Below, in pieces: positions 14,841-22,304 of a DNA stretch of 64,000 nucleotides. The notes beneath the pieces were generated by a model. It was not told where the DNA came from. It made no database searches and saw only the letters and a list, made by a program, of their open reading frames with translations. The stretch's first letter is position 1. Each line of letters opens with the position of its first letter. Made by a program: the position numbers and the translations under genes. This DNA is from Betaproteobacteria bacterium (GTDB lineage Bacteria; Pseudomonadota; Gammaproteobacteria; Burkholderiales; SG8-39), in NCBI GenBank assembly GCA_029883975.1, contig JAOUIL010000003.1:23164-87163 (forward strand), read 5' to 3'.

Positions 14841-17120
14841 ATGACCGCAACCGCCCTCGCGTTCGCCACCGGCGTGCTGCTGCTGCAGCAACAGGCCGCG
14901 CTGCCCGCCGTGGGCTGGCTTACCCTGCTGCCGGCCTGCGCCGCGCTCGCCGCCTGGCGGCGCGCGCTCGCCATCCCGGCGGCGCTGGCCGTCGGCTTCC
15001 TGTGGGCGGCGGGCGCGGCGCACCTGCGGTTGGCGGACCGCATGTCCCCGGAGCTCGAAGGCGTCGATCTCGCAATCACGGGCGTCGTGTCCGGACTGCC
15101 GGCACCTCTGGAGCGCGGCGCGCGCTTCGCCTTCGACGTCGAGCACGCGCCGGCGCGGCTGCCGCGCAGGATCCTGCTCGCCTGGTACGGCGAGGCGCCG
15201 CCGCTGCGGCCCGGCGATCGCTGGCGCCTTTCGGTCCGGCTCAAGCGCCCCCACGGTCATGCCAACCCGCATGGCTTCGATTACGAGGTTTGGCTCATGG
15301 AGCGCGGCATCGGCGCCACGGGCTACGTGCGTGACGCCCAGGGCGCGCTGCGGCTGGGCGCGCGCGACTTCCCCGGCGACCGCATCGAGCAGGCGCGCGC
15401 GGCGGTGCACGAGCGCTTCGTGCGCACGCTCGGCGAAACGCCGGCGGCCGGCATCCTGACGGCGCTCGCGGTGGGTGAGCAGCGCGCGATCGCCAACGAG
15501 GAGTGGCGGCTGTTCGCGCGCACGGGCGTCACGCACCTGATGAGCATCTCCGGGCTGCACGTGACGCTGGTCTCGGGGCTCGTGGCCTGGCTCGCGGCGG
15601 CGCTGTGGCGCCGCGTGCCGCGCCTGGCGCTCGCCGTCCCGGCGCGCAAGGCCGGCGCGGCCGCAGCCATCGTGGCAGCGCTCGGCTACACGCTGCTCGC
15701 CGGCTTCGCGGTGCCGGCGCAGCGCACCTTCTACATGGTGAGCGTCGTGGCGCTCGCGCTGTGGTCGGGGCGCATGGCCTCACCGGCGCGCACGCTCGCC
15801 CTCGCACTCGCGGTGGTGACGGCGCTCGATCCGTGGGCGGTGCTGCAGCCGGGCTTCTGGCTGTCGTTCGGCGCGGTGGCGCTCATCTTCTACGTGTCCG
15901 CGGGCTGGAGCACCGGCGAGCCGCGCTTGTGGCAATGGGCGCGCGTGCAGTGGGCGATCACCGTGGGGCTCGCGCCCGCGGCGCTGTTTCTGTTCTCGCA
16001 GGTATCGGTGGCGGGGCCGCTGGCCAACGCGCTTGCCATTCCGCTCGTCTCGGCGGTCCTCACGCCGCTCGCGCTCGCCGCCGCGGCCATCCCCGCGGAC
16101 ACGCTGCTCTACGCGGGCGAGTGGCTCGTGCATGCGCTGCTCGCCTGGCTCGAATGGTGCGCGCGCCTTCCCGGCGCGCTCTGGCAGCAGCACGTGCCGC
16201 CGCTGTGGGCGACCCTGCTCGCGCTCGCCGGCGTGGCGTGGCTGCTGCTGCCGCGCGGCTTTCCATGGCGTGCGAGCGGGCTCGCGCTGATGGGGCCGGC
16301 GCTCGTGCTGCCCGCGCCCGTGCCGGCGCCGGGCGAGGCCGCGGTCACGGTGTTCGACGTCGGGCAGGGGCTCGCGGTGCTGGTGCGCACCTCGGGCCAC
16401 GCGCTGCTGTACGACGCGGGGCCGGCGTACGGGAGCGAGGCGGACAGCGGGGAGCGCGTCGTCGCGCCGGCACTGGTCGCGCTCGGCGTGCGCCGGCTCG
16501 ACACGCTCGTGCTCACGCACGACGATACCGACCACACCGGCGGCGCGCGCTCGATCCTCGAGCAGTTCGAGACCGGCGCGCTGCGCCACGCGCTGCCGGC
16601 GGAGCACGCGCTCCTCGGGCTCGCGCCCGCGGCCGCGCGCTGCGCGCGCGGCGAAGCCTGGGAGTGGGACGGCGTGCGCTTCGAGTTCCTGCACCCTGCG
16701 CCGGGGCTGAACGCGCGCCGGCGCAATGACGAGAGCTGCGTGCTGCGCATCGCGGCGGGCGGCACCGCGATGCTGCTGGCCGGCGATATCGAGCGCGGCA
16801 CGGAGCGCGCGCTCGCGCGCGCCGGGCTGCAGCCCGCGACCGCGCTGCTCGTGCCGCATCACGGCAGCCGCAGCTCCTCCAGCGCCGAGCTGCTCGCCGC
16901 CGTGCAGCCGCGCGTCGCCGTGGCCGCCGCCGGCTATCGCAACCGCTTCGGTCACCCCGCGGCGGATGTCGAGGCGCGCTACGCGCAGGCGGGAACGCGG
17001 CTGCTGCGCACCGATCGCGATGGTGCGGTGTACCTGCAGCTCGCGCCCGGCGCGCTGCAGGTGGAGTCCGAGCGCGCGCGCCGCCCGCGCTACTGGCACG
17101 CGTGCGCACCGCCGGCGTAA
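14841..17120 (+). CDS. comEC: DNA internalization competence protein ComEC/Rec2
   Basis: NPHGFDYE, TGVTHLMSISGLHV, DVGQGLA, THDDTDHTGG, PHHGS, GYRNRFGHP. Confidence 0.95.
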   Translation: MTATALAFATGVLLLQQQAALPAVGWLTLLPACAALAAWRRALAIPAALAVGFLWAAGAAHLRLADRMSPELEGVDLAITGVVSGLPAPLERGARFAFDVEHAPARLPRRILLAWYGEAPPLRPGDRWRLSVRLKRPHGHANPHGFDYEVWLMERGIGATGYVRDAQGALRLGARDFPGDRIEQARAAVHERFVRTLGETPAAGILTALAVGEQRAIANEEWRLFARTGVTHLMSISGLHVTLVSGLVAWLAAALWRRVPRLALAVPARKAGAAAAIVAALGYTLLAGFAVPAQRTFYMVSVVALALWSGRMASPARTLALALAVVTALDPWAVLQPGFWLSFGAVALIFYVSAGWSTGEPRLWQWARVQWAITVGLAPAALFLFSQVSVAGPLANALAIPLVSAVLTPLALAAAAIPADTLLYAGEWLVHALLAWLEWCARLPGALWQQHVPPLWATLLALAGVAWLLLPRGFPWRASGLALMGPALVLPAPVPAPGEAAVTVFDVGQGLAVLVRTSGHALLYDAGPAYGSEADSGERVVAPALVALGVRRLDTLVLTHDDTDHTGGARSILEQFETGALRHALPAEHALLGLAPAAARCARGEAWEWDGVRFEFLHPAPGLNARRRNDESCVLRIAAGGTAMLLAGDIERGTERALARAGLQPATALLVPHHGSRSSSSAELLAAVQPRVAVAAAGYRNRFGHPAADVEARYAQAGTRLLRTDRDGAVYLQLAPGALQVESERARRPRYWHACAPPA

Positions 17121-17165
17121 ACTGGCCGCGCGGGATCTCCCCGCACACTCTTGGAGGAGGCGCTC

Positions 17166-17384
17166 ATGGCGAAAGGCGACAACGCGGTCTACCGGGTCAC
17201 CGAGGTGATCGGCACCAGCACCAGCTCGTGGGAAGAGGCGGCCAAGAACGCGGTGAAGACCGCCGCGGGGTCGCTGCGCGACCTGCGCATCGCGGAAGTC
17301 ACCAAGCTCGACGTGAAGATCGAGGACGGCAAGGTGACCCAGTTCCGCACGCGCCTCGCGCTGTCCTTCAAGTACAGCGGCTGA
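17166..17384 (+). CDS. Dodecin (flavin-binding) family protein
   Basis: VYRVTEVIGTS..SWEEAAKNAV..A..SLRDLR.AEV...LSFK; strong GGAGG RBS. Confidence 0.88.
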   Translation: MAKGDNAVYRVTEVIGTSTSSWEEAAKNAVKTAAGSLRDLRIAEVTKLDVKIEDGKVTQFRTRLALSFKYSG

Positions 17385-17695
17385 TGGCGTTCACGGCGAT
17401 CGTGCGCGTCACCGGCGCGGCGGGGCGCTTCGAGGATTTCCGCGAGCGCGTGCGCTGGCTCATGGTGCGCGACATCGACGCCGAGCCCTACACCGAGCAC
17501 CACCGCCCCGGCGAGCTCGAGTACCGCTTCGAGCTCGCGCGGGGCATTCCGTTCCCCGCGTTCGTCGAGGCGACGCGCGACTTCGAGGAGCTGCGCGTCG
17601 AGGTCGAGTGGGAGCACGACGGCGCGCGCGGCGGCGCAGCCATCGAGGCTGGCCGCCTGGTGGACAAGTGGACCGGGGAACGGGAGCCGCGTTGA
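17384..17695 (+). CDS. Hypothetical protein
   Basis: ATG overlaps the dodecin stop; host-like codon usage; GIPFPAFVEAT..F.ELRVEVEW. Confidence 0.7.
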   Translation: MAFTAIVRVTGAAGRFEDFRERVRWLMVRDIDAEPYTEHHRPGELEYRFELARGIPFPAFVEATRDFEELRVEVEWEHDGARGGAAIEAGRLVDKWTGEREPR

Positions 17696-18549
17696 GCGCC
17701 GTCGCGCGACCGCGGCGCGTGCAGTGCGCCTCTCCGGCGGGGCTGCACCGCATGGCGTACCTGGAGTGGGGCGACCCGACCAATCCCGAGGTGCTCATCT
17801 GCGCGCACGGCCTGACGCGCTGCGCGCGCGACTTCGACAACCTCGCGCGCGCGCTTTGCACCCGTTACCGCGTCGTGTGCCCGGACATGGTGGGGCGCGG
17901 CGATTCGGGGTGGCTCGCCGATCCCGTGTTCTACGCCGTGCCGCAGTACGTGGCGGACATGGTGACGCTGATCGCGCGCCTGGACGTCGAGCGCGTGCAC
18001 TGGGTCGGCACATCGCTCGGCGGCCTGGTCGGCATGGCGCTCGCCGCGCAGAAGGACTCACCCGTGACGAAGCTGGCGCTGAACGAGGCGGGCGCGGTGG
18101 TGGCGCACGCCTCGCTCGAGCGCATCGGCCAGTACCTCGGCACCGACCCGAGATTTCCGAGCATCAAGGCGGCCGAGAAGGTGGTGCGCGCCGTGTCGGC
18201 GCCGTTCGGGCCACATACGGACGCCGAGTGGCGCTTCCTGACCGAAGTGGTGCTGAGGAAGAACCCGGACGGCACCTGGCGTTTCCACTACGACCCGCGC
18301 ATCGCCGTGGCCTATCGCGGGCAGATCCCCGAGGGCGACATCGTGCTGTGGGACACCTACGATGCCATTCGCTGCCCGACGCTGCTCATCCGCGGCGCGC
18401 AGTCGGACTTGCTGTCGCGGGAAACCGCCGAGGAGATGACGCGCCGCGGGCCGCAGGCGAAGCTCGTCGAGCTGCCCGGCATCGGGCACGCGCCGACCCT
18501 GTTGCACGACGACCAGATTGCGATCGTGCGGGAGTTTCTATTCTCGTAG
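17692..18549 (+). CDS. Alpha/beta fold hydrolase
   Basis: HGLTRCARDFD, GRGDS, GTSLGG nucleophile elbow, GHAP catalytic His. TTG start overlaps the upstream stop. Confidence 0.92.
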   Translation: MSAVARPRRVQCASPAGLHRMAYLEWGDPTNPEVLICAHGLTRCARDFDNLARALCTRYRVVCPDMVGRGDSGWLADPVFYAVPQYVADMVTLIARLDVERVHWVGTSLGGLVGMALAAQKDSPVTKLALNEAGAVVAHASLERIGQYLGTDPRFPSIKAAEKVVRAVSAPFGPHTDAEWRFLTEVVLRKNPDGTWRFHYDPRIAVAYRGQIPEGDIVLWDTYDAIRCPTLLIRGAQSDLLSRETAEEMTRRGPQAKLVELPGIGHAPTLLHDDQIAIVREFLFS

Positions 18550-18635
18550 GTATTTCAGCGGTGGTTGCCAGCGGCAACTTGCGGCTCGCGTCGAATTGAC
18601 CGCTATCGAACCTAACCGGGCATTCGCGGTGTAGA
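18478..18635 (+). repeat. Direct repeat copy 1 (hydrolase 3' end plus downstream promoter-like segment)
   Basis: 18478-18550 vs 19640-19712 match at 65/73 positions with a 29-bp identical core. Homology continues past the stop codon, including ATTGACCGCT at 18595-18604. Confidence 0.9.
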
Positions 18636-18824
18636 TTTGCGACCGATTTGGTGTGCGGATTGCCAAAGCTGCCAACTGCGGCTTTTCTCGGAGTTGTTGT
18701 TTGCACCCAAGGATCGAAAATGACCTTGGTTGAAATTGTCGGATAGGGCGCAACGGTCCAGTAGAGTCGCTCGAGAGGAGTTGCATTTCATAGCGCCAAG
18801 GTGGTCCAGGCGGGAGGTGATGCA

Positions 18825-19598
18825 ATGGCGGGGATCTTCATAAGCTACCGTCGCGACGACAGCGACGTTGCCGCCGGCCGGCTCGCTGATGACCTATCGG
18901 AAATCCTCGGACCTCACTCGATCTTCCGGGACGTCGACAAACTGGAGCCAGGTGAGGACTTCGAGATAGCGCTGGACCATGCCCTCAGTTCCTGTGTGGT
19001 CCTTATTGCTGTGATTGGCGCGCGCTGGTCGAGCATTACCGATGGTGGGGGGCGTCGACGCCTGGAGGATCCCAAGGATTGGGTGCGCGCAGAGATCAGC
19101 CGAGCCTTGGCGCGCGGCATTCGTGTGATACCCGTTCTGATTTCGGGAACAACTATGCCGCGCGAAGAGGAGGTTCCTGTTGATCTGAAAGCACTTCTCA
19201 AGCGTCAGGCGCTTGAGTTGGGTGATCGACACTGGAAACAGGACATTGAGCTTCTGACACAGGCCTTGGAGAAGATCCCAGGAATCACGAAGCGGGGTCC
19301 ACCACTGAGCGCAATGGCCACAGCAATGGGCAGAGTCACCCTGGTTGGGTCAAGGCAATGGTTCGCAATCAGTCCACAGATAATAGTCTCCATTGACAAT
19401 ATGGAAGTGGCTCGAATGAAGCTGAGCGATCAAGTGACCGTGGAAATCAAACCGGGCGCTCACACGATCTATGGAAAGATGCCCCTCAGCTCCTCAAAGA
19501 CCACCACTTTCGATTTGGAGCCGGGCCAAACCCAGACCTTCTCGGTGAGCATCAATCGCCTAACTGGAGGCCTGAGGATCGAACTTCTAGCGGAGTGA
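18825..19598 (+). CDS. TIR domain (TIR_2-type) protein with a C-terminal beta-rich domain
   Basis: IFISYRRDDS, IFRDVD.L.PGEDF, WVRAEI (catalytic Glu position), VIPVL. GGAGG RBS; visibly AT-richer codons than neighbouring genes. Confidence 0.9.
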   Translation: MAGIFISYRRDDSDVAAGRLADDLSEILGPHSIFRDVDKLEPGEDFEIALDHALSSCVVLIAVIGARWSSITDGGGRRRLEDPKDWVRAEISRALARGIRVIPVLISGTTMPREEEVPVDLKALLKRQALELGDRHWKQDIELLTQALEKIPGITKRGPPLSAMATAMGRVTLVGSRQWFAISPQIIVSIDNMEVARMKLSDQVTVEIKPGAHTIYGKMPLSSSKTTTFDLEPGQTQTFSVSINRLTGGLRIELLAE

Positions 19599-19639
19599 AT
19601 CCGCGACGCGAGGAATACACCAAGCAGGTGACACTGGCG

Positions 19640-19796
19640 GGCATCGGCCATGCGCCGACCCTGTTGCACGACGACCAGATCGCGATCGTGCGCGAGTTCC
19701 TGGTTTCGTAGGCATGCCGCGGTAGTTCCTGACATCCGCCTGTCGCTGGCATGGGATTGACCGCTTGCGACCTTAGGCGGACATTCATGCCGTGGA
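19640..19796 (+). repeat. Direct repeat copy 2 (orphan hydrolase C-terminus plus promoter-like segment)
   Basis: Encodes GIGHAPTLLHDDQIAIVREFLVS* without the rest of the gene; ATTGACCGCT at 19756-19765. Confidence 0.9.
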
Positions 19797-19806
19797 CAGG
19801 CGCCCA

Positions 19807-20613
19807 ATGCGAGGTGCGATTGTCTGGGCATGCGCAGCCGGCCTGCTGACGGTCGCCGGTTGCGCCTCTCGTCCAGCAGAGCCGCCAAAGCCGATCAATC
19901 TCTTGGCCGTGCTGCCTGCCTGGGCGCCCGTCACCGATTCCAACCTCGGCTTCGGTTCGTCGGGACCGTCGGTCGTGGTCGTGCCGATCGTCGTGCCGTC
20001 CGGGTCGCAAGGAAGCGGGATATCGACCGGCGGCGCCGTAGCGGCAGGCGTCATTACTTCCGCAGTCATCTATGGCATGCAGGAAAGCAAGCGCAAGGGG
20101 CGCGAAGCGCTCGCCGAGGCGCTGTCGCATATCCACTTCGATGCGGCCGCGGAAGTCGACTCCAGGCTCATACCCGCACTGGAGCAGCGCCAGGTTCGTC
20201 TGGTCCGCATCACCGATCCCAACATCATCTGGGGTGTGCGCAACGGGAGATTCGACGGCCTGCCCGAGGGCGTCGACGCCATCCTCGACGTGCGCATTAC
20301 CGAGTCCGGCTACTACTCTTCCACGCGGGCCGGCGGCTACTCGCCGATGCTCCTGATCACGGCGAACCTGCTTCCGCCGGTGGCCAAAGCCGAGAGCCTG
20401 GATGAATTCAGCTACTACGCGGACTTTCGGGACGGCGGCAAGGACAGGCGATGGATCACGACGCCCACGTCCATGACTTTCGCTACCGTCGAGCTGCTCA
20501 AGGCAGGTGCAGGCGACGCGCGCGCGGGCCTCTCCACGGTGGTGGACCAGATGGTGGCGCTGATGGTCGAGGACCTGCAGCGCCATGCGCGCGGAGAGCT
20601 TCGGGTCGACTGA
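19807..20613 (+). CDS. Hypothetical lipoprotein
   Basis: MRGAIVWACAAGLLTVAGC lipobox; Gly-rich hydrophobic patch GGAVAAGVITSAVIYG. Confidence 0.75.
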   Translation: MRGAIVWACAAGLLTVAGCASRPAEPPKPINLLAVLPAWAPVTDSNLGFGSSGPSVVVVPIVVPSGSQGSGISTGGAVAAGVITSAVIYGMQESKRKGREALAEALSHIHFDAAAEVDSRLIPALEQRQVRLVRITDPNIIWGVRNGRFDGLPEGVDAILDVRITESGYYSSTRAGGYSPMLLITANLLPPVAKAESLDEFSYYADFRDGGKDRRWITTPTSMTFATVELLKAGAGDARAGLSTVVDQMVALMVEDLQRHARGELRVD

Positions 20614-20629
20614 GCACGCTCGTTCATCG

Positions 20630-21769
20630 TCAGCCGCGGCGATTCGCCGCGTCCCAGTGCTTCTCGAGATTCGCGATCAGCGCAGGGCTGAAATGGCACA
20701 CGGCCTGCTCGCGCGCGTACACCGCCATGTAGCGCCGGAACTCGTCGAGCGGCTCCTCGCCCGAGCGCAGCGCGCGCCTGTTCCCGGCGGCGCTCACCAC
20801 GCCGGAGTCCGTGAGATTGGAGATGGTGCGCGCGATCGCCGCGTCCATCCCGCCCACTGGCACGATCTCGTCGCAGATCATGCGCCCTTCGGGCGAGTCG
20901 CAGTCCAGCCGGCGGCCGGCGAGGATCGCCTGGCGCGCGATGCGCGGGCCGACGAAGCGCGGCAGCCGCAGGTTCGCCGCGCCCGGGATGATGCCTTCCT
21001 TCCTCGCCGGCAACGTCATGTAGGCATCCTGCGCGGCGAGCACGTAGTCCATGGTCAGCAGGATCTGGCAGTGCCCGCCGATGGCGAAGCTCTCCACCGC
21101 CGCCACCCAGGGCTTCTCGATGCTGTCCTCCTCGGGATGCACGCCGGGCCGCGCGAGCCCGCGGTACAGCTTGTTGACCAGGCCGAGGTCGCGGATCAGG
21201 TACCAGAGGTAGCGGATCTTCCCCTGGTAAAGGTGCGTGAGATTGATGCCGGCGCCGAACACGCGCTTGCCCGCGTGCTTGGTGTGCGTGACCGTGTCGC
21301 CGCGCAGCAGGCAGAGCTCGCTTTGCCGATCGAGCAGCGCCACGTCGACCGCGATCTCCAGCCCGTCGAGGGTCGTCTCGTCCTCGGCATTGAGGAAGCG
21401 CGGGTTGCGCATGGTGACGACCACCGCCTTTCCCTCGCGGTGCACGCACGCCCCGGCGAGCTCGAGCGTGCCCTGCGCCTCGAATTCCTCCAGGTGCCGC
21501 GCCGAATCGGCTCGCGGCAGCAGCATGCAGTGCACGAGATGCGTGCCGCACCGAGGATCGGCGAGCACGGCGCCCAGGAAGCGCCCGTAGGCCTTCTCCA
21601 GGCCCTTCTTGTCGCGCTGCATCAACGGCGCCTCGGCCGCCAGCCCGGCGGCGCCGGGCAGCAGACCGGGCCAGCGCGCGCCGGCCCGCCGGCACAGCTC
21701 GTCCACGCGCACCGGCTGCGACAGCCCGCCGGTGAGCGCGTCGTAGGCGGCAAGCGCGTCGCGCGACAT
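20630..21769 (-). CDS. DpgC-like crotonase-family protein (similar to (3,5-dihydroxyphenyl)acetyl-CoA 1,2-dioxygenase)
   Basis: LNAED, E.AVD.ALLD, GKRVFGAGINL, IEKPWVAAV..FAIGG, LPARKEGIIPGAANLRL, matching DpgC blocks as I recall them. Confidence 0.8.
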   Translation of the reverse strand: MSRDALAAYDALTGGLSQPVRVDELCRRAGARWPGLLPGAAGLAAEAPLMQRDKKGLEKAYGRFLGAVLADPRCGTHLVHCMLLPRADSARHLEEFEAQGTLELAGACVHREGKAVVVTMRNPRFLNAEDETTLDGLEIAVDVALLDRQSELCLLRGDTVTHTKHAGKRVFGAGINLTHLYQGKIRYLWYLIRDLGLVNKLYRGLARPGVHPEEDSIEKPWVAAVESFAIGGHCQILLTMDYVLAAQDAYMTLPARKEGIIPGAANLRLPRFVGPRIARQAILAGRRLDCDSPEGRMICDEIVPVGGMDAAIARTISNLTDSGVVSAAGNRRALRSGEEPLDEFRRYMAVYAREQAVCHFSPALIANLEKHWDAANRRG

Positions 21770-21812
21770 GGGCCGCCAGTCTACCGCGAAGGCCGCGCCG
21801 TCTGGACATTCG

Positions 21813-21844
21813 CTGCCGAGGCAGGTAGTTTGCTGCCTGGGCAG
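21813..21844. promoter_or_regulatory. Tandem MarR-type operator palindromes CTGCC-N2-GGCAG
   Basis: CTGCCGAGGCAG (21813-21824) and CTGCCTGGGCAG (21833-21844) between the divergent dpgC-like gene and marR; resemble the E. coli marO core TTGCC-N2-GGCAA. Confidence 0.7.
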
Positions 21845-21860
21845 TCAACTGGGGGTGGGC

Positions 21861-22304
21861 GTGGGCCTGTACCGGGCCGAGACCTATCGCGTCGAGGACA
21901 GCGTCGGCTGGCTGGTGACGCGCCTGCGCTCGTCGATCTTCGCCGCGGTGGACCGCGAGCTCGCCGGCTCGGGTATCTCGGCGGCGCAGGCCGGCATCCT
22001 GCTCTACCTCGCCCATGGGCGCGGCGACCGCGTGGCCGACATCGCGCGCGACTACAGCTACGACACCGGCGCGGCCACGCGCATGGTCGCGCGCCTCGCC
22101 GCCAAGCGGCTGCTGCGCCGCGTGCCCGACGCCGAGGACGGCCGCGTCGTGCGCCTGGAGCTCACCGCGGGCGGCCGCAAGCTCGCCGCCGAGCTGCCGG
22201 CCGTGGCCGCCAAGGTGCTCAACCAGCACCTGCGCGGCTTCACGCACGCCGAGCTCGGCCAGTTGAAGGGGCTGCTGCAACGCATGCTCGACAACCATGG
22301 CTAG
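21861..22304 (+). CDS. MarR family transcriptional regulator
   Basis: D.GAATRMVARLAAKRLLRRVPD.EDGRVVRLELTAGG winged-HTH. Start GTG at 21861 or 21855. Confidence 0.9.
   Translation: MGLYRAETYRVEDSVGWLVTRLRSSIFAAVDRELAGSGISAAQAGILLYLAHGRGDRVADIARDYSYDTGAATRMVARLAAKRLLRRVPDAEDGRVVRLELTAGGRKLAAELPAVAAKVLNQHLRGFTHAELGQLKGLLQRMLDNHG

Follow-up and report, generated by a model that had tools for sequence, protein, structure and literature searches.

How does a gene of foreign composition come to lie directly behind a conserved hydrolase gene without damaging it, and why is the end of that hydrolase gene present twice? The question is raised by a locus in a 64,000-nucleotide (nt) stretch of the genome of a betaproteobacterium (Betaproteobacteria bacterium, assembly GCA_029883975.1, contig JAOUIL010000003.1, positions 23,164 to 87,163), which is referred to here as the window and supplies all coordinates unless another contig is named. 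An intact alpha/beta-hydrolase gene (17695-18549, + strand; stop codon TAG at 18547-18549) is followed by a 959-nt fragment of low guanine-plus-cytosine (GC) content (18663-19621, +) that consists of a gene for a TIR-domain protein and its own upstream region, then by an orphan second copy of the hydrolase 3' end and finally by a putative lipoprotein gene (19807-20613, +; 268 amino acids (aa)). An initial annotation had proposed an integrase-free cassette slot in which units of hydrolase tail, promoter and one cargo gene are exchanged. The reading favored here, to which we assign a probability of roughly 60%, is that a foreign TIR gene recombined in behind the conserved hydrolase and left a one-off 3'-end displacement scar in a variable intergenic slot. 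On present evidence, the locus records a single event and not a dedicated gene-capture device or a new kind of system.

Two copies of the hydrolase 3' end

A repeat search of the window returned a direct repeat of 114 nt (18440-18553 versus 19602-19715) with 77% identity and a spacing of 1162 nt. When the boundaries were placed by the ends of homology between the copies, by the tails of 19 same-genus relatives and by comparison with homologues of the TIR gene (locus L041) and of the lipoprotein gene (contig L121), the repeat became about 200 nt long at the same spacing. Copy 1 (18460-18662, +) comprises the last 90 nt of the intact hydrolase gene, a leader of ~95 nt and ~16 nt that resemble the start of the lipoprotein open reading frame (ORF). 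Copy 2 (19622-19822, +) comprises the orphan hydrolase 3' end (19622-19711; stop codon TAG at 19709-19711), its leader and the initial 16 nt of the lipoprotein ORF itself, which copy 2 overlaps. The hydrolase homology of copy 2 starts at about 19622 (codon AAG) when compared with the 19 same-genus tails, and the lipoprotein-gene homology starts at about 19808 when compared with L121. The weaker protein-level similarity that had been reported upstream of the repeat core is real from about 19622 onward; for 19599-19621 it does not hold, as this segment aligns at least equally well with the flank of the TIR homologue L041.

The other measurements in the initial annotation were accurate. The identity of 65/73 between 18478-18550 and 19640-19712 is exact, as is the shared block of 29 nt (18490-18518, +, identical to 19652-19680), which encodes APTLLHDDQI beside the GIGH (catalytic-His) motif in both copies. 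Homology past the stop codon spans ~105 nt with a single 1-nt indel (18558-18662 versus 19719-19822), somewhat longer than the ~85 nt first described, and its local alignment score of 27 compares with 9.0 +/- 1.3 (maximum 14) in 500 shuffles. The genes following the copies are likewise as described: copy 1 is followed by the TIR gene (18825-19598, +; 257 aa; Pfam TIR_2, E 2.9e-12, with the TIR domain N-terminal) and copy 2 by the putative lipoprotein gene, which has no Pfam family and for which a signal peptide and a VAGC lipobox were read from the sequence. Across the whole genome (3.44 Mb in 175 contigs), copy 2 was the sole significant second match to 18440-18700 (E 2.8e-24), while the remaining three matches had E values of at least 0.0027.

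Divergence of the two tails

The coding parts of the two tails (90 nt each) share 82% identity, which lies close to the average of 84% for pairs of relatives (range 71-97%), and their identities to the 19 relatives are similar (81.5% for copy 1 and 80.9% for copy 2). Both tails carry the high-GC codon usage of the genus. The 16 differences between them are split 3:2:11 by codon position (chi-square p 0.010), resembling the split of 0.26:0.14:0.60 among functional orthologues, and this third-position bias suggests that the orphan tail diverged mostly within a working hydrolase gene of a high-GC lineage. The leaders have diverged further (~37%). Because the TIR gene is unameliorated and the tails are only 82% identical, the copies were not identical duplicates when the TIR gene arrived; judged from their substitutions, they were already diverged alleles when they were joined.

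As for the identical block of 29 nt, it simply marks where the hydrolase gene is most conserved. Identical runs of at least 29 nt occur in 28 of 171 pairs of relatives, and the block matches its own reverse complement at only 8/29 positions and has no dyad symmetry, so it needs no explanation as an att site. A pattern of reciprocal chimeras resembling attL and attR, seen when the tails were divided into segments of 48, 30 and 30 nt, was weakened once the homology boundary was set at about 19622. With that boundary, copy 1 departs from the genus consensus at 3/30 and 7/60 positions and copy 2 at 6/30 and 4/60, which is not significant.

A compositionally foreign TIR gene

The TIR fragment is compositionally foreign and unameliorated. 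GC content is 0.70-0.78 in the flanks, falls to 0.52-0.60 over 18500-19600 and recovers to 0.64-0.68 over the lipoprotein gene, and this drop, the ends of homology between the repeat copies and the comparison with L041 together define the fragment. GC content at third codon positions (GC3) follows the same order, rising from 0.63 in the TIR gene through 0.80 in the lipoprotein gene to 0.92-0.93 in the hydrolase gene, the convergent crotonase-family gene downstream and the competence gene comEC upstream.

The sole full-length homologue of the TIR protein that was found, L041, shares 74% aa identity with it and is encoded on a contig of 53-55% GC with a GC3 of 0.60; the homology does not extend beyond the coding sequence, except perhaps for ~20 nt past the stop codon. 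PADLOC and NCBIfam returned only generic, sub-threshold TIR matches. The C-terminal ~100 aa belong to no Pfam family, gave an uninformative best score of 0.77 in the Atlas and are held in common only with L041 among 79 homologous loci. The TIR part contains a DWVRAE motif, which may mark the position of the catalytic glutamate. The 79 TIR-homologue loci, collected from genome contigs with flanks of up to 5 kb, contained no hydrolase tail, leader, lipoprotein gene or crotonase-family gene. Searches for relatives of the TIR protein returned none from viral contigs and five plasmid records, all below 37% identity and none a close relative.

A variable slot at a synteny boundary

The TIR unit and the lipoprotein gene occupy a position that differs in content between species. 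The genus was represented by 24 other species-level genomes, one genome per species, in 21 of which the orthologous locus was recovered and in 20 of which the slot could be assessed; the contig of G003 stops inside the hydrolase gene, and no intact orthologue was obtained from G007, G010 or G013. The hydrolase orthologues are 73-80% identical in 17 full-length loci and 71-76% identical in four loci that are partial or frameshifted. Of the 20 assessable genomes, 15 (among them the unpublished genome G022) have the hydrolase gene directly abutting the convergent crotonase-family gene, at a distance of 0-70 nt, compared with 2077 nt here.

The remaining five assessable relatives have an occupied slot, with unrelated cargo each time: PhoX in G005 (2.3 kb); a complete pair of a MazE/PrlF-type antitoxin and a PemK/MazF-type toxin in G012 (0.66 kb; L038:2720-3257); a cyclase-FHA protein, a 76-aa ORF and a Crp-type regulator in G018 (1.9 kb); a 90-aa ORF and a methyltransferase in G017 (to the contig end); and a low-GC MASE3 sensor in G001 (to the contig end). 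The slot is variable between species, and the cargo turnover foreseen in the initial annotation, with different contents between the hydrolase gene and the next conserved gene, is borne out to this extent.

At the level of the family, for which a second unpublished genome (G463) was added to the tally, all 26 loci keep at least one of comEC, the dodecin gene and a conserved 100-aa ORF (orf100) upstream of the hydrolase gene, and comEC itself is kept in 22/26. The crotonase-family gene lies within 1.5 kb downstream in only 3/26 of these loci while the upstream cluster is kept, so the end of the hydrolase gene appears as a boundary of synteny. The proximity of comEC had been taken as a speculative hint of transformation-fed cargo exchange; as conserved synteny of the whole family, the adjacency is not specific to the TIR event and lends that link no support.

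The lipoprotein gene, too, belongs to the rare accessory genes and is mobile in its context. A homologue was present in 1 of the 24 same-genus genomes (G023), on a 1.4-kb contig away from that genome's empty hydrolase locus, and a search of 400 genomes of the order gave one weak match. On the metagenome contig L121, a homologue with 79% identity lies beside tRNA-Val and a gene whose Pfam match to PagP stays below threshold. The region upstream of this homologue has no homology to the leader of copy 2 (score 10 versus 9.5 in shuffles).

A proposed history of the locus

The structure of the locus, the TIR fragment's foreign origin, the earlier divergence of the copies and the variation of the slot among species are established; the sequence of events, the identity of the resident copy and the route of recombination are inferred. 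The resident locus would have read hydrolase, leader, lipoprotein gene and convergent crotonase-family gene. The homology between the copies ends 16 nt into the lipoprotein ORF, which implies that copy 1 once preceded a lipoprotein gene too. The donor would have been another species-level lineage with the same layout, in which the lipoprotein gene, 16 nt into its ORF, had given way to a low-GC TIR fragment or been interrupted by one. Incoming DNA may then have been anchored by homology in or upstream of the resident hydrolase gene, with its far end joined illegitimately at about codon 254 of the hydrolase. Such a pathway would be a one-sided case of homology-facilitated illegitimate recombination, and a single crossover of a circularized fragment would be a near-equivalent. 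The incoming piece would have brought its own hydrolase 3' end, so the gene stayed intact, and the resident tail, leader and lipoprotein gene would have been pushed 1162 nt downstream, leaving the tail as an orphan. These events would need neither a recombinase nor a recombination site dedicated to the purpose. In a mirror version, copy 1 would be resident and copy 2 would have come in with the lipoprotein gene, giving the same picture. Crossing-over between the copies would remove the TIR unit, and the hydrolase gene, now a hybrid, would remain intact, as the repeat geometry had already led the initial annotation to expect; the unit is thus predicted to be excisable in principle.

Several observations weigh against this history. 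Sliding windows over the hydrolase gene and trees of three blocks, each compared with 17 relatives, showed no clear donor tract, and the only signal is a longer terminal branch (0.15-0.18, versus 0.09 upstream). The parental alleles were not found, the signature pattern of the core had no matches in metagenome contigs and the layout of hydrolase, leader and lipoprotein gene occurs in no other genome searched, so that a history of two lineages is drawn from one genome. Both junctions (18662/18663 and 19621/19622) are likewise placed from the assembled sequence. The differences between the tails are unevenly spread (10, 1 and 5 in successive 30-nt thirds), and both copies share the codons ACC and TTG, found in 0/19 relatives; sister alleles or gene conversion between the copies would be needed to account for this. 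Although comEC and dprA are encoded in the genome and are compatible with DNA uptake, both genes are widespread, including in bacteria not known to be competent, and do not show competence. Finally, measured rates of homology-facilitated illegitimate recombination are low, according to the available text of PMC5361080.

Comparison with known systems

The layout of the locus matches published models of gene-end displacement, and this was counted in favor of the displacement scar. The available text of Jackson et al. 2009 (PMC2935791) describes displacement of the C-terminal part of rhs genes, which leaves an intact gene, low-GC DNA and orphan fragments that repeat the core, and proposes homologous recombination with circular intermediates. 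The available text of Kirchberger et al. 2017 (PMC5361080) proposes homology-facilitated illegitimate recombination for the same layout in T6SS (type VI secretion system) clusters of Vibrio and draws a parallel to integrons without an integrase. As far as these excerpts go, the present locus has in common with displacement in rhs, contact-dependent inhibition (CDI) and T6SS loci an intact gene, an import of lower GC content, an orphan in direct repeat, retention of the old downstream gene and no integrase.

Unlike rhs, CDI and T6SS loci, the gene concerned is a conserved hydrolase of housekeeping type, with matches to Pfam alpha/beta-hydrolase families only, and not a polymorphic toxin. The displaced piece is a conserved tail, shared with 19 relatives, instead of a variable toxic tip, and the cargo consists of a TIR gene and a lipoprotein gene and includes no immunity gene. 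A single orphan is present here, without an array, and the arrangement does not recur in the five other occupied slots. The repeated cores of rhs loci are also almost identical (91.6% at the aa level in Serratia marcescens and identical within each E. coli locus, in the available text of PMC2935791), whereas the tails here are 82% identical.

Homology-facilitated illegitimate recombination as described in excerpts of PMC3240628 and PMC5361080 joins one homologous end to one non-homologous joint and brings in ~1 kb of foreign DNA, as would be the case here. In contrast, the joint at the present locus would lie upstream of the end of the anchor, so that recipient sequence would be duplicated and not deleted. 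The Minimal Mobile Elements of Neisseria, which in the available text of PMC1797815 are alternative small gene sets at syntenic positions, are also similar, in that unrelated gene sets without mobility genes of their own lie between the same conserved flanking genes (15 empty and 5 occupied slots here). The variation at this slot, however, lies between species-level genomes and not between strains. Minimal Mobile Elements are not known to leave a duplicated gene tail. Integron cassettes resemble the locus in being single-gene units behind a fixed point, with older units pushed back, but there is no intI, attI, attC structure or array here, and the units carry long homology to the host gene.

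Alternative explanations

The cassette slot of the initial annotation would be an active one, in which single crossovers repeatedly insert and remove circles of ~1.16 kb, each with a tail, a leader and one gene, possibly supplied by transformation. Such a slot would account for direct repeats that flank exactly one gene and from which a crossover would restore an intact hydrolase gene, for an identical block of 29 nt within a repeat that is otherwise 63-82% identical and for the differences in slot contents between species, and recombination through circular intermediates has been proposed for rhs tips in the available text of PMC2935791. The idea of a reusable unit nevertheless finds only two copies in everything searched. 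None of the five other occupied slots contains a second hydrolase tail (tblastn at E <= 1e-3, and blastn), and no third tail follows the lipoprotein gene, which ends 16 nt before the next gene. The leader was not detected in the same-genus loci searched, in the 26 family loci or in the 79 TIR loci, and this genome has no further copy beyond copy 2; none of the 79 TIR homologues adjoins a hydrolase tail. As noted above, identical runs of 29 nt are ordinary among relatives. The promoter assumed for each unit also failed to appear, as no sigma-70 consensus site and no terminator were found in 18300-20800, and the only promoter-like feature of the copies is a shared TTGACC within an 11-nt identical block. 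With these points on both sides, an active cassette slot is regarded as unlikely.

A broader version, in which the hydrolase tail and leader act as a portable homology anchor, such that attached genes are stacked and lost by RecA-type recombination after uptake, appears very unlikely for the same locus.

The copies could also be attL and attR of a larger site-specific element at the hydrolase 3' end whose integrase and most of its cargo were later deleted. Elements that integrate into the 3' ends of genes supply the target with a new 3' end and come to lie between direct repeats. In addition, inspection of the slot of G001 by eye suggested a stretch like a tRNA 3' half and a C-terminal motif of integrase type; neither was confirmed by Pfam, ARAGORN or Rfam. 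The homology at the present locus, however, extends over ~200 nt, is graded from 63 to 82% and reaches into the next gene, without a short and sharply bounded att core. Between the copies, the TIR gene and its upstream region take up the 959 nt, and neither an integrase nor part of one is present there. The genome has two matches to tyrosine recombinases (PF00589), on contigs C87 and C153 and not on the contig of the window, and none to serine recombinases (PF00239). The statement that the unit lacks an integrase and terminal inverted repeats was therefore correct and extends to serine recombinases: no inverted repeats bounding either unit were present among the 25 longest of 36 pairs. There were no Rfam matches in the region, no integrase beside the insertion point and no attC-type inverted repeats at the ends of the units, and inverted arms like those of dif were not apparent in the core (8/29 to its own reverse complement), the dif consensus itself not having been searched. 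Overall, the remnant of an integrative element is given little credence. It should be noted that the genome is 98.5% complete and that mobile elements are often missing from such assemblies; so few recombinases may reflect either very few integrated elements or losses in binning.

Alternatively, ~200 nt could have been duplicated in place when the TIR gene was inserted, for example by template switching, with the copies diverging later. The target region would then be present on both sides of the insert in direct orientation, as observed. Divergence of 18% in the coding part and ~37% in the leader is nevertheless difficult to reconcile with a TIR gene that remains unameliorated (GC3 of 0.63 versus 0.92), and a third-position bias of 3:2:11 (p 0.010) is unexpected for a non-functional orphan, which makes duplication in place highly improbable.

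Equally improbable is a chimeric contig joining two strain variants: the assembly has 175 contigs, the repeat is confined to it among the assemblies searched and contigs of two others break in the 3' part of this gene, but the region has no runs of N, its novel junctions lie outside the shared sequence, where a mis-join in a k-mer graph would not be expected to place them, and in a comparison of 24 sequencing runs by sampled 31-mers of 17700-21000, two runs contained half or more, with the run of a second sample code containing 0.92.

Implications

Should the displacement scar be the correct reading, the locus would be a clean and small case of the entry of a foreign gene without mobile-element machinery and without damage to the target gene. 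The gene that entered encodes a TIR-domain protein and is possibly related to defense. The replacement 3' end would have arrived with the insert and the old end would persist as a datable scar, and such scars could flag gene gain by recombination in metagenome-assembled genomes. In the available text of PMC2935791 and PMC5361080, 3'-end displacement is described for polymorphic toxin loci, and the process would then not be confined to them. If the portable anchor were real instead, 3'-end displacement would be a general integrase-free route by which accessory and defense genes gather beside conserved genes.

Neighboring genes and additional observations

The conserved run that ends in the hydrolase gene starts with comEC, the competence channel gene (14841-17120, +; Pfam Competence 6.4e-62, with DUF4131 and Lactamase_B), and continues with a dodecin gene (17151-17384, +; Pfam Dodecin 1.5e-23) and orf100 (17393-17695, +), which has no Pfam family and is 74-90% identical across the same-genus loci. 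The hydrolase gene itself (Pfam Abhydrolase_6 7.3e-20 and Abhydrolase_1 1.9e-19) probably starts with the TTG at 17695. The convergent crotonase-family gene (20630-21769, -; DpgC-like; Pfam ECH_1 9.3e-15) forms the right-hand border of the slot and is conserved as such in the genus; it scores 376.8 bits against the NCBIfam model for DpgC ((3,5-dihydroxyphenyl)acetyl-CoA 1,2-dioxygenase), under the cut-off of 530. It is followed by a MarR gene (21768-22304, +), and this neighborhood is kept across the genus.

Contigs break inside the same 3' part of the hydrolase gene in two other assemblies, at residue 234 in G003:C189 and at residues 224-240 in G473:C88 and G473:C49. The breaks may fit strain-level differences that begin there, or may be a coincidence. 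The hydrolase-tail matches in G473:C49 and G450:C15 sit at contig ends. A tail-like end of 34 aa, 65% identical to residues 251-284 of the hydrolase, closes a 378-aa frame in G016:C12 (L149:3276-3377, minus strand), at a locus unrelated to the comEC-hydrolase cluster and in an assembly with frameshifts; it could represent a further orphan tail or a paralogue that has been fused.

The context of the lipoprotein homologue, at L121:128-245, looks like the edge of an island. The homologue lies ~0.8 kb from tRNA-Val (128-202), and a second stretch containing GGTTCGAATCC occurs shortly after the tRNA. Structural look-alikes of the lipoprotein in the Atlas belong to unnamed clusters, with weak leads to LpoB-like and GNA1162-like folds (template-modeling (TM) scores <0.5).

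In the slot of G001, the stretch that resembles a tRNA 3' half (GGTTCGAATCC ... CCA; L017:1100-1170) lies ~70 nt past the hydrolase stop codon. Beside it, on the opposite strand, a 102-aa frame (L017:795-1103) carries the integrase-like motifs TKNG..R.VPL and GGWKS..MV.R. If these features are real, the cargo of G001 would have arrived with an element that targets tRNA genes.

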